This document shows, one piece after another, positions 6,290-62,610 of a stretch of DNA of 64,000 nt. The position numbers were made by a program, and so were the translations under genes. This DNA comes from Escherichia coli (lineage in GTDB: Bacteria > Pseudomonadota > Gammaproteobacteria > Enterobacterales > Enterobacteriaceae): assembly GCF_036507355.1 (NCBI RefSeq), contig NZ_AP027877.1. The stretch is one strand, 5' to 3'. Position 1 is the first letter of the stretch. Each line of letters starts with the position of its first letter. The notes beneath the pieces are model-generated. The model had not been told where the DNA came from. It was given only the letters and a program-made list of their open reading frames with translations, and did no database searches.

Positions 6290-6372
6290 AATAGTGTCGG
6301 ATGCCTGGCGTTGTCCAAGATTGCGTAGGCCGAATAAGGCGTTCACGCCGCATCCGGCAAAATGCCCAATAC
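6290..6372. repeat. REP (repetitive extragenic palindromic) element
   Basis: gccggatgcggcgtgaacgccttattcggcctac-type palindromic unit between uppP and cca. Confidence 0.7.
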
Positions 6373-14182: not shown

Positions 14183-14261
14183 CCGGAAAGCGGTTCACAG
14201 ATCTCGCTTCGTACATGGCAGGCCTATTGACGCTGTTGTTTTTTCAACCTAGAGTAAAGGA

Positions 14262-14410
14262 ACAAGGGTAAGGGAGGATTTCTCCCCCCTCTGATGAGTT
14301 GTTAGTAAGTCGGGAAACTTAACAGTAACAACACAACCAGTATGATGACGAGCTTCATCATAACCCTTTCCTTCTATAAGGCCCCTTCCTCGGGAGGGGC
14401 TTTCCCGTTT
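14262..14410 (+). ncRNA. sibE: Sib-family antisense sRNA (antitoxin), copy proximal to hldE
   Basis: Promoter TTGACG(14227-32)-17 bp-TAGAGT(14250-55); terminator hairpin gcccctTcc/ggaggggc + U-tract at 14380-14410; fully antisense to the ibs ORF; ends approximate; D/E naming by synteny only. Confidence 0.7.
14302..14361 (-). CDS. ibsE: Ibs-family type I toxin, 19 aa (MMKLVIILVVLLLLSFPTY)
   Basis: Hand-translated minus-strand ORF, ATG 14361 to TAA 14302-04; hydrophobic 19-mer typical of Ibs; below ORF-track size cut-off. Confidence 0.75.
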   Translation of the reverse strand: MMKLVIILVVLLLLSFPTY

Positions 14411-14637
14411 CAGCCCCTTGCTGTCTCCCCGATTGTTGATGAGCGCCGGACCCCGCGCAACGCTTTCCCTGAAGCAGTTTTGCCTTCCCCGAGCGGTCAC
14501 GCAAAACGCTGCAACGTCCTGAGCATTTGCACCTTTTAGCGGAACGCAGATATAAAAAATCCCCGGCTTTTTGGGCCAGGGATATGTGTTAATGAAACCT
14601 TCTTGACGCTGATTTTTTTTCAACCTAAAGTAAAGGA

Positions 14638-14786
14638 ACAAGGGTGAGGGAGGATTTCTCCCCCCTCTGATTGGCTGTTAATAAGCTGCGAAACTTACGA
14701 GTAACAACACAATCAGTATGATGACGAGCTTCATCATAACCCTTTCCTTCTGTAAGGCCCCTTCCTCGGGAGGGGCTTTCCCGTTT
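14638..14786 (+). ncRNA. sibD: Sib-family antisense sRNA (antitoxin), copy proximal to yqiK
   Basis: Promoter TTGACG(14603-08)-17 bp-TAAAGT(14626-31); same terminator hairpin at 14756-14786; antisense to second ibs ORF. Confidence 0.7.
14678..14737 (-). CDS. ibsD: Ibs-family type I toxin, 19 aa (MMKLVIILIVLLLVSFAAY)
   Basis: Hand-translated minus-strand ORF, ATG 14737 to TAA 14678-80; paralog of the copy at 14302..14361. Confidence 0.75.
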   Translation of the reverse strand: MMKLVIILIVLLLVSFAAY

Positions 14787-18989: not shown

Positions 18990-19247
18990 GAATCCGCTTA
19001 TTCTCAGGGCGGGGCGAAATTCCCCACCGGCGGTAAATCAACTCAGTTGAAAGCCCGCGAGCGCTTTGGGTGCGAACTCAAAGGACAGCAGATCCGGTGT
19101 AATTCCGGGGCCGACGGTTAGAGTCCGGATGGGAGAGAGTAACGATTCTGTCGGGCATGGACCCGCTCACGTTATTTTGGCTATATGCCGCCACTCCTAA
19201 GACTGCCCTGATTCTGGTAACCATAATTTTAGTGAGGTTTTTTTACC
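18990..19247 (+). promoter_or_regulatory. ribB 5' leader with FMN riboswitch (RFN element / sroG)
   Basis: Conserved RFN segments aggGCGGGGCGAAATTCCCCACCGGCGGTAAA ... GCCCGCGAGCGC ... CAGCAGATCCGGTGTAATTCCGGGGCCGACGGT ... AGTCCGGATGGGAGAGAG directly upstream of ribB; ends approximate. Confidence 0.8.
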
Positions 19248-45582: not shown

Positions 45583-45686
45583 ACGTTCCTCCTTTATATG
45601 AACTCACCGGAGCAGGCTCCGGTGAGGTGTTGTGAACTTAAGTCTGGACGAAATGCCCGAAAACGAAAGTTTGAGGCGTAAAAAGC

Positions 45687-50220: not shown

Positions 50221-50955
50221 GTGGGTAATAATTTAATGCAGACGGACCTTTCCGTCTGGGGTATGTATCAGCACGCCGATATTGTCGTTAAGTGCGTGAT
50301 GATTGGGCTTATTTTGGCCTCCGTAGTCACCTGGGCAATCTTCTTCAGTAAGAGCGTAGAGTTCTTCAATCAGAAGCGTCGCCTTAAGCGCGAGCAGCAA
50401 CTGCTGGCTAAAGCGCGTTCCTTAAACCAGGCCAACGATATCGCCGCTGATTTTGGTAGCAAAAGCTTAAGCCTGCATTTGCTCAATGAAGCGCAGAATG
50501 AGCTGGAACTGTCAGAAGGCAGCGACGATAACGAAGGTATTAAAGAACGTACCAGCTTCCGTCTGGAGCGTCGGGTCGCCGCAGTAGGTCGTCAAATGGG
50601 CCGCGGTAACGGCTATCTGGCAACCATCGGCGCGATTTCGCCGTTCGTTGGGCTGTTTGGTACGGTCTGGGGCATCATGAACAGCTTTATTGGTATCGCG
50701 CAAACGCAGACCACTAACCTGGCAGTCGTTGCGCCGGGTATCGCAGAAGCTCTGTTAGCAACGGCAATCGGTCTGGTGGCAGCGATTCCGGCGGTCGTTA
50801 TCTATAACGTATTTGCACGCCAGATTGGCGGCTTTAAAGCGATGCTGGGTGATGTTGCAGCGCAGGTATTGTTGCTGCAAAGCCGTGACCTGGATCTGGA
50901 AGCCAGCGCCGCTGCGCATCCGGTTCGTGTCGCACAAAAATTACGCGCAGGATAA
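50221..50955 (+). CDS. exbB: TonB-system energizer ExbB
   Basis: 244 aa, MotA/TolQ/ExbB family. Confidence 0.95.
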   Translation: MGNNLMQTDLSVWGMYQHADIVVKCVMIGLILASVVTWAIFFSKSVEFFNQKRRLKREQQLLAKARSLNQANDIAADFGSKSLSLHLLNEAQNELELSEGSDDNEGIKERTSFRLERRVAAVGRQMGRGNGYLATIGAISPFVGLFGTVWGIMNSFIGIAQTQTTNLAVVAPGIAEALLATAIGLVAAIPAVVIYNVFARQIGGFKAMLGDVAAQVLLLQSRDLDLEASAAAHPVRVAQKLRAG

Positions 50956-50961
50956 TGTCCG

Positions 50962-51387
50962 ATGGCAATGCATCTTAACGAAAACCTCGACGATAACGGC
51001 GAAATGCATGATATCAACGTGACGCCGTTTATCGACGTGATGTTGGTTCTGCTGATTATCTTTATGGTGGCGGCACCGTTAGCGACGGTAGATGTGAAGG
51101 TTAACTTGCCTGCTTCTACCAGCACGCCGCAGCCGCGCCCGGAAAAACCGGTTTATCTGTCGGTGAAGGCAGACAACTCGATGTTTATCGGTAACGATCC
51201 GGTCACCGATGAAACAATGATTACGGCGTTGAATGCGTTAACCGAAGGTAAGAAAGACACCACCATCTTCTTCCGAGCGGACAAAACCGTCGATTACGAG
51301 ACGTTGATGAAGGTAATGGATACGCTGCATCAGGCGGGTTATCTGAAGATAGGCCTGGTCGGCGAAGAAACCGCTAAAGCGAAGTAA
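50962..51387 (+). CDS. exbD: TonB-system energizer ExbD
   Basis: 141 aa, single N-terminal TM helix. Confidence 0.95.
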   Translation: MAMHLNENLDDNGEMHDINVTPFIDVMLVLLIIFMVAAPLATVDVKVNLPASTSTPQPRPEKPVYLSVKADNSMFIGNDPVTDETMITALNALTEGKKDTTIFFRADKTVDYETLMKVMDTLHQAGYLKIGLVGEETAKAK

Positions 51388-51396
51388 AGTAGAATT

Positions 51397-51615
51397 GCCT
51401 GATGCGCTACGCTCATCAGGCCTACAAAATCTATTGCAACATGTTGAATCTTCGTGCGTTTGTAGGCCGGATAAGGCGTTCACGCCGCATCCGGCATTAG
51501 GTGCTCAATGCCTGATGCGCTACGCTTATCAGGCCTACAAAATCTATTGCAACATGTTGAATCTTCATGCGTTTGTAGGCGGATAAGGCGTTTTCGCCAC
51601 ATCAGGTAAGAGTGA
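51397..51615. repeat. BIME-type REP cluster: two tandem ~113-bp units
   Basis: gcctgatgcgctacgctYatcaggcctacaaaatctattgcaacatgttgaatcttcRtgcgtttgtaggc... repeated at 51397 and 51510. Confidence 0.85.
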
Positions 51616-51625
51616 ATTCACAATG

Positions 51626-51662
51626 ATGCCCGGTTGCTTTTCACAACCGGGCATTTTTTTAA
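51626..51662. terminator. Bidirectional terminator between exbD and yghA
   Basis: atgcccggttg/caaccgggcat hairpin followed by T7; overlaps the yghA stop codon. Confidence 0.75.
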
Positions 51663-52543
51663 CCTAAATGCTCGCCGCCGCACACGCCGTGCACTTCTGC
51701 GGTGACGTAGCTCGACTCCTGACTTGCCAGATAAACATATACAGGGGCCAGTTCCGCCGGTTGCCCCGCACGCTTCATCGGCGTTTTCTGACCAAACTGC
51801 GGGATCTTATCCTGCGTTTGTCCGCCGGAAATTTGCAGTGCTGTCCAGATCGGGCCTGGCGCGACAATATTCACCCGAATACCTTTCTCTGCGACCTGTT
51901 TTGCCAGGCCACGGCTGTAGTTCAGAATTGCCGCCTTCGTAGCTGCATAGTCCAGTAAATGCGGGCTTGGCTGGTATGCCTGGATTGACGAAGTGGTGAT
52001 GATACTTGCACCTTTCGGTAGCAGGGGTATCGCTTCCTGGGTTAGCCAGAACAGTGCGAAAACGTTAATGGCAAAGGTCTTTTGAAACTGTTCGCTGGTG
52101 AGGTCTGCAATATCAGGAATGGCAACCTGTTTCCCGGCGACCAGCGCCATAATATCCAGCCCACCTAAGGCCTTATGCGCTTCGTGAACCAGCGAACGGG
52201 CAAATTTCTCATCGCTTAAATCGCCTGGCAGCAGAACGGCTTTGCGTCCGCATTCTTCAATGATCTTTTTCACATCCTGAGCGTCTTCTTCTTCTACGGG
52301 AAGATAACTGATCGCCACGTCAGCCCCTTCACGCGCGTAAGCGATGGCGGCAGCGCGACCGATTCCGGAATCGCCCCCTGTCACCAGGGCTTTACGATCT
52401 TTCAGGCGACCGCTACCAACATAGGTTTTCTCGCCGCAATCCGGTACCGGTGTCATCTTCGCCTGGATGCCTGGCGTCGGTTGTTTCTGTTTGGGATATT
52501 CACCAGTGTAATACTGCGTGGTCGGGTCTTTTAAATGAGACAT
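51659..52543 (-). CDS. yghA: Short-chain dehydrogenase/reductase
   Basis: 294 aa; [10 protein letters not shown] Rossmann motif. Confidence 0.9.
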
Positions 52544-62499: not shown

Positions 62500-62610
62500 C
62501 TTTCGTAGGTCTGATAAGACGCGGCAGCGTCGCATCAGGCATTGTGCTCGATTGCCGGATGCGGCGTGAACGCCTTATCCGGCCTGGATGGCTTGCTGCG
62601 ACGAACGCTA
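62500..62610. repeat. REP element(s) between hybG and yghU
   Basis: gtaggtctgataagacgcggcagcgtcgcatcaggc and gccggatgcggcgtgaacgccttatccggcc palindromic units. Confidence 0.75.

Follow-up and report, generated by a model that had tools for sequence, protein, structure and literature searches.

REP sequences are imperfect palindromes of 30–40 nt that fall, in E. coli, into three classes, y, z1, and z2. The BIME-1 arrangement of such palindromes is also called RIB or RIP. [quoted passage not shown] The Rfam model of naRNA4 is built on REP325, and its authors name the palindromes Y and Z2. The genes exbB, exbD, and yghA are listed, after EcoCyc, with REP222, an element of five REPs (PMC10100675), and the yghA side has already served one laboratory as its model of a transcript with REPs (the K-12 "5-REP" transcript of Murashko et al., PMC10100675).

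The array analyzed here lies between exbD and yghA in a window of 64,000 nt (the whole stretch of E. coli DNA under analysis, from contig NZ_AP027877.1). It is already known, being the exbD–yghA BIME catalogued as REP222, and contains nothing beyond the known kinds of element. The element is present in K-12, where the same 283-bp intergenic region occurs with one substitution, in the loop of the first Y REP; the RefSeq record of MG1655 has no repeat feature at this locus. [quoted passage not shown] On the + strand, the ORF list gives exbB (50221–50955) and exbD (50962–51387, with the stop codon TAA at 51385–51387), the name of the latter being taken from the RefSeq annotation of matching loci. 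The convergent gene is yghA (51659–52543, − strand; ORF list and matching loci). In many RefSeq genomes, the product of exbB (WP_000527844.1) is named "tol-pal system-associated acyl-CoA thioesterase," which looks mis-assigned; the name in MG1655 is "Ton complex subunit ExbB." Elsewhere in the window, Rfam matches at gathering level occur at 14227–14376, 14603–14752, 18996–19144, and 45621–45684 (two tandem SIB RNAs, an FMN riboswitch, and the ES173 sRNA).

The first-pass annotation had described, downstream from exbD, two tandem 113-bp BIME/REP units that differ by a few substitutions and extend to 51615. The REP scan and the ORF list agree on the kind of element and on its place. Tandem Repeats Finder gives a single array at 51396–51603 (period 113, 1.8 copies, 93% matches, score 372), and the 113-bp unit is present about 1.9 times across 51397–51606 with 92%–93% identity. 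In a global alignment of 51397–51509 with 51510–51615, 97 of 105 columns are identical (92.4%), and the observation stands because this value exceeds the limit of about 85% that the annotation had set for itself. The initial 72 nt of the two units are 97% identical without a gap. Both copies are present, but the second is incomplete: it is without the 14-nt junction, has a 1-nt deletion, and its homology stops at about 51606 and not at 51615. An imperfect 13-nt direct repeat (10 of 13 identical) brackets the array, at 51384–51396 (GTAAAGTAGAATT, which includes the exbD stop) and at 51606–51618 (GTAAGAGTGAATT); it could be the footprint of the original insertion and is weak in E. albertii. A 63-codon ORF across the array (51395–51586, with a TTG start) was rejected as a gene, since it is composed of REP sequence.

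Read along the + strand, the parts follow the order iREP(Z1)–linker–REP(Y)–junction–iREP(Z1)–linker–REP(Y′), with REPs in alternating orientation and linker motifs between them, as in BIMEs generally. A spacer of 9 nt (AGTAGAATT, 51388–51396) separates the exbD stop from the first REP stem. The first Z1-type REP (51397–51425) is inverted and ends with CTAC. It is followed by a linker of 36 nt, L′ (51426–51461), and by the first Y-type REP (51462–51495), which begins with GTAG and has an intact consensus. At a 14-nt "s"-like junction (ATTAGGTGCTCAAT, 51496–51509), the units meet head to head; this junction aligns to the linker of the naRNA4 (Y–linker–Z2) model. Then come the second inverted Z1-type REP (51510–51538), the second L′ linker (51539–51574; one substitution relative to the first), and a degenerate Y REP, Y′ (51575–51606), with five substitutions and a 1-nt deletion over 28 positions of the comparison with the first Y. 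Between 51606 and 51625, 18 nt separate Y′ from the hairpin of the intrinsic terminator of exbBD (51625–51660, + strand).

The pattern scan finds three REP units of alternating orientation, namely two short Zs with a Y between them, the fourth, Y′, being degenerate, as it is also in E. albertii and in a presumably cryptic Escherichia lineage. The intact REPs are 29–34 nt long with a conserved GTAG/CTAC foot and match the Y and Z consensus; they are extragenic, in the interval from the exbD stop codon to that of yghA, and highly repeated, the query having matches at a median of 33 sites in a genome. For each intact REP, the folding energy is between −13 and −21 kcal/mol and z is −4.2 or lower (first Z1 hairpin, −15.3 kcal/mol, z −5.2; first Y hairpin, −20.9 kcal/mol). 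All the hairpins fold strongly on either strand except Y′, for which the fold is weak (−9.6 kcal/mol, z −1.95). The first Z1 is the published REP GCCTGATGCGCTACGCTTATCAGGCCTACG with one base changed. The second Z1 is identical over 29 nt to one of the three REP query sequences in the paper on the IS621 bridge RNA (PMC11208160), and another of these queries is nearly identical to the first Y. Two further REP-containing sites occur in the window: a solitary Y-type REP with one stem substitution (TTATTCGGCC) at 6325–6358 on the − strand and, at 62505–62587, a second BIME fragment in which a REP of the long Z type (z2) and a Y REP stand head to head across a junction of 13 nt.

The Z hairpin of the naRNA4/REP325 model, called Z2, is 7 nt longer than the Z hairpins of the array, and the latter are for that reason of the short type, z1. 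Naming the short Z "Z2" was considered and dropped; the Z2 of REP325 is a long Z, and the canonical L-containing element has a short Z. The canonical L motif, used as a query, is present in 5,425 of 5,426 E. coli genomes, the median being at least 29 sites in a genome (about 30–40 or more copies). One 50-kb chunk of K-12 contained no additional L copy. The comparison with the canonical L is a comparison with one locus, katE–chbG, where all six sampled matches lie. The katE–chbG copy reads Y-CTAC, 12 nt, ATTCAATATATTGCA, 8 nt, GTAG-short Z; the linker of the array, on the − strand, reads Y-CTAC, 12 nt, ATTCAACATGTTGCA, 9 nt, GTAG-Z1. In the same register, the cores (ATTCAAtATaTTGCA in katE–chbG versus ATTCAAcATgTTGCA here) are identical at 13 of 15 positions, and every position specified by the L-core consensus, ATTCAA-N4-TTG, is retained. 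The whole linker is 36 nt versus 35 nt for the canonical one, with about 60% identity overall and outside the core by a hand count. With up to three mismatches, the L core is found in the window only in these two linkers, yet 15 of 100 shuffles also give two or more matches.

The core of the diverged linker, CAACATGTTG (51437–51446 and 51550–51559), is a perfect 10-bp palindrome. Compared with the canonical core CAATATATTG, it is changed at the symmetric positions 4 and 7, and the dyad symmetry is preserved. In the minimum-free-energy fold, the two linker cores pair with one another. The variant is specific to this locus: it is found in 3,790 genomes with 7,467 copies, at a median of two per genome. 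Since the architecture, the register, and the 13/15 identity of the core are those of katE–chbG, each 113-bp unit can be described as a BIME-1-like module. Judged from its sequence, the array is best classed as an atypical BIME made of two BIME-1-like modules that are joined by a BIME-2-style Y–s–Z junction.

Published data on K-12 indicate that the array is transcribed from both sides and that both RNA 3′ ends and a decay intermediate coincide with its hairpins. On the exbBD side, three "primary" exbD 3′ ends are reported, at 3150776, 3150658, and 3150544 (TRS data set, PMC10687069 supplement). They correspond to window position 51429, which lies 8 nt beyond the first Z1 stem, to 51547, immediately beyond the second Z1, and to 51661, in the U-tract of the terminator; multi-mapping may affect these positions, since the maps are made of short reads in repeated sequence. 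A Rho-dependent region is reported at 3150660 on the exbBD strand, with a score of 2.5 (Adams et al., PMC7815308 supplement 2). On the yghA side, the full-length RNA measures about 1,000 nt, and an intermediate of about 300 nt contains REPs (Murashko et al., PMC10100675). Both RNAs are stabilized by NaF-induced ATP depletion, by inactivation of RNase E, and by removal of the degradosome scaffold (PMC10100675), i.e., their decay depends on ATP and on RNase E and the degradosome.

We consider it very probable that REP222 is an "atypical" BIME in the 3′ UTR of exbBD, transcribed in both directions, and that its hairpins shape the 3′ ends and the stability of the two convergent mRNAs. The hairpins may act as barriers to 3′-to-5′ exonucleases and as sites near which Rho-dependent attenuation takes place. 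An effect on the translation of ExbD is also conceivable because the first hairpin begins 9 nt past the exbD stop. REPs at 15 nt or less from a stop codon are reported to stall terminating ribosomes (PMC12306157, citing Liang et al. 2015); by extrapolation from other genes, the first hairpin might dampen ExbD translation. At the level of DNA, the L-like linkers would offer the IHF-core positions that they keep, and gyrase might bind at the intact Y REP.

The distribution of the element was followed in 5,426 complete E. coli genomes. A 701-bp query of the locus has a full-length match in about 3,590 of them, and a query of the junction, of which only the bands at 95% identity or above are usable (matches at 83%–91% coverage are contaminated by other BIMEs), is found in 3,587. 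We take the genomes with full-length matches as two-unit genomes (about 66%). The linker, at 80% coverage or more, is present in 3,775 genomes, which leaves, after the two-unit count, roughly 100–200 one-unit genomes (about 2%–4%). About 1,640 genomes (about 30%) have no linker, for example SMS-3-5 and ATCC 25922, which belong to phylogroups F and B2, respectively. In these two strains, the exbD stop is followed directly by the same terminator, in a 37-bp spacer. With about 30% of the genomes keeping the terminator without the array, the element can be dispensed with, and whatever regulatory effect it has is modest or limited to certain lineages. For a synthetic four-unit query, the best 40 matches were all two-unit loci; an allele of three or four units would have outranked them. 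By blastn, a few genomes have three or four copies of the linker, which may be duplications of the locus or assembly issues. Copy number does differ between strains, as had been proposed, but mainly as presence or absence of the whole array, with no expansion seen.

Two single-unit alleles, one found in a pig in China and the other in a human isolate from Egypt, have the same sequence. They are chimeras in which Z1 has the variant of copy 1 and the linker that of copy 2, which is the product expected of unequal homologous exchange between units. The 11-nt natural target of IS621, ATCAGGCCTAC, with its CT core (target from PMC11208160), is present in both Z1 REPs, which are natural landing sites for this bridge-RNA recombinase. 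In E. coli MY732 (NZ_AP026907.1), IS621 is inserted exactly in the second Z1 REP and flanked by CT (window 51529–51539). The MY732 copy (IS110 family, with a bridge-RNA recombinase; 416–1395 of the extract) has a frameshifted transposase, and its site reads ATCAGGCCT^..CT^AC.

Related genomes place the element further back. In E. albertii, the same position is occupied by one degenerate Z1–L–Y′ unit, whose flanks are similar and whose linker core is close to the canonical L, so that the element probably predates the split between E. coli and E. albertii. In E. albertii NBRC 107761, a short 3′ remnant of yghA lies beside the terminator hairpin (about 2060–2200 of the extract), and the next convergent ORF ends like gpr; yghA and yqhA appear deleted. 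A lineage labeled E. coli, 92.9% identical to the window and presumably a cryptic Escherichia clade, has the order Z1, short linker, Y, s, Z2, linker, Y′. In Enterobacter and in "Escherichia sp. ESNIH1," where exbD and yghA are also convergent, the spacer of 44–61 bp holds just the terminator. The empty allele of some E. coli would most simply be a later loss, with introgression as the alternative. The two units of the array differ at 2 of 71 positions in Z1 and the linker versus 6 of 28 in the Y part (Fisher p = 0.006), and a simple recent duplication fits poorly with such an uneven distribution. The divergence of Y and Y′ fits either a homogenization of Z1 and the linker or an internal Y refreshed from other genomic copies; REP-associated transposase recombines pieces of BIMEs in vitro (PMC3333891). 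The comparison suggests that an old single BIME-1-like unit in Escherichia gave rise to the two-module array, that Z1 and the linker were later homogenized between modules, and that some E. coli lineages went to one unit by unequal recombination or lost the whole element.

A rival reading is a purely selfish or neutral repeat, spread by the REP-associated transposase and by recombination, with no role for exbBD or yghA and with 3′ ends that are incidental. The element is absent from about 30% of the genomes, whose terminator is unchanged, the last Y has decayed, the structure varies among Escherichia lineages, and the insertion of IS621 is tolerated in one strain. Nevertheless, the array has kept its site from a time before E. 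coli and E. albertii separated, and it has measurable molecular consequences in K-12, namely additional 3′ ends and a decay intermediate that contains REPs and has a half-life of its own. We hold a purely neutral repeat to be rather unlikely, while noting that neutrality does not exclude a 3′ UTR element that shapes mRNA ends, the explanation we prefer.

The hairpin that follows the array is real and strong. Its arms (51626–51636 and 51644–51654) are complementary at 11 of 11 positions, and it folds at −20.5 kcal/mol (z = −5.8). On the + strand, a GC-rich stem of 12 bp (7 G–C), a loop of 7 nt, and a T7 run directly after it (51654–51660, overlapping the yghA stop codon at 51659–51661 on the − strand) form an intrinsic terminator, which is also the match of the terminator scan on this (exbBD) strand. 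The hairpin is conserved in strains without the BIME. Several Rfam matches over it (STnc310, Thr leader, Spot 42, and others) are far below threshold and reflect the hairpin and the U-tract.

The first-pass annotation had taken the hairpin as a bidirectional terminator, ending both exbBD and yghA after a recombination-prone tandem array. A single-unit recombinant allele in two unrelated isolates agrees with the second part, yet one-unit genomes make up just 2%–4% or so, and none was seen with three or more units. As for the first part, the hairpin lies 5 nt past the yghA stop and folds equally well on the − strand (−22.2 kcal/mol), but the tail past it on that strand is AUUGUGAA, with 3 U in 8 and thus no U-tract, and the scan of the − (yghA) strand found no terminator. 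Neither of two K-12 3′-end data sets (PMC7815308 supplement and PMC10687069 supplement) contains a yghA 3′ end, and REPs are reported to stand at the 3′ end of the yghA mRNA in K-12 (PMC10100675). On the yghA strand, a Rho-dependent region with a score of 4.6 is reported at MG1655 3151021, antisense to exbD (Adams et al., PMC7815308 supplement 2). This coordinate (given on the + strand) corresponds to about 51184 of the window on the − strand, beyond the BIME and about 200 nt inside antisense exbD, which is consistent with yghA-sense transcription crossing the hairpin and the BIME into exbD antisense. Termination of both genes at this hairpin is accordingly improbable. Since yghA transcripts carry REPs and Rho regions occur on both strands, in agreement with the sequence rules, the hairpin (51625–51655) looks one-directional, an intrinsic terminator for exbBD only.

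A role at the level of DNA can be imagined as well, in which IHF on the L-like linkers and gyrase on the Y REP would form a topological insulator absorbing the positive supercoils of convergent transcription. The site lies between convergent genes, and the linker keeps all the ATTCAA-N4-TTG positions in the canonical BIME-1 register. L linkers frequently have an IHF site and REPs bind gyrase (PMC3333891), with y-type REPs being preferred (PMC6379681). The same linker is, however, only about 60% identical to the canonical L outside the core (hand count), and the enrichment of gyrase was reported for BIME-2 (z2 and y), to which the array does not belong. We found no entry for exbD or yghA in the supplement of the gyrase Topo-seq study. 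Such an insulator has a poor chance of being the explanation, and we stay with the effects on the mRNAs.

Within those effects, a bolder version would make the presence, absence, or copy number of the BIME a natural expression switch for the TonB energizing complex, acting through ExbD translation and exbBD decay. This is a speculation that we rate as quite unlikely. If true, the lineages without the BIME (about 30%, including ATCC 25922 and SMS-3-5) would make a different ExbB:ExbD ratio, with effects on siderophore uptake and on the sensitivity to colicins and phages, and the symmetric double change from CAATATATTG to CAACATGTTG would be a sign that a structure or a dimeric binding site had been under selection. 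The natural allele without the BIME is a ready-made control for REP effects on the expression of exbBD.

It is very improbable that the array encodes a nucleoid-associated small RNA like naRNA4, whose Y–linker–Z double hairpin would bind HU and bridge cruciform DNA: the Y–s–Z1 double hairpin at 51465–51535 (+ strand) does match RF02564 with 68.1 bits (gathering threshold 59.5) inside a transcribed 3′ UTR, but the same site scores 50.2 bits on the reverse strand, the Z hairpin is 7 nt short of that in the model, no promoter-like site was found in 51200–51900, and the work on HU binding and DNA condensation concerns REP325 only. A REP pair at 62508–62584 scores higher still (84.8 bits), which shows that the model detects generic REP pairs, and the match is not to be taken for a gene dedicated to a small RNA.

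As an instance of a textbook class of enterobacterial repeats, the element matters little beyond housekeeping, and the useful outcome lies in the corrections: the array is best described as atypical and derived from BIME-1, the hairpin does not look bidirectional, and the variation is mostly a lineage-linked presence or absence. With BIME-1, it shares Y and a short Z whose CTAC and GTAG feet face a linker of 35–36 nt, and a core at 12 nt from the Y foot as in katE–chbG. It differs from BIME-1 in having two tandem modules in place of a single copy at the locus and a diverged linker found only here. With BIME-2 (e.g., REP325/naRNA4), it shares the tandem arrangement, here of two copies with a 14-nt junction, and the head-to-head Y–s–Z junction that matches the naRNA4 model. 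It departs from BIME-2 in its short Z in place of z2, in a long, L-like linker (36 nt from foot to foot) in place of S, and in having just two units. Compared with atypical BIMEs, for which z1, y, an L-like linker, and an s-like junction occur together, here twice in tandem, no difference was identified. Like the 3′ UTRs with stabilizing REPs of malE–malF and osmC, the locus has REP hairpins, 3′ ends at the feet of hairpins, and intermediates that depend on the degradosome; unlike them, its array is upstream of a canonical intrinsic terminator and common to two convergent genes. With REP222 of K-12, finally, it has in common the flanking genes, the order of the parts, the length of the spacer, and the terminator, and nothing of substance is different.
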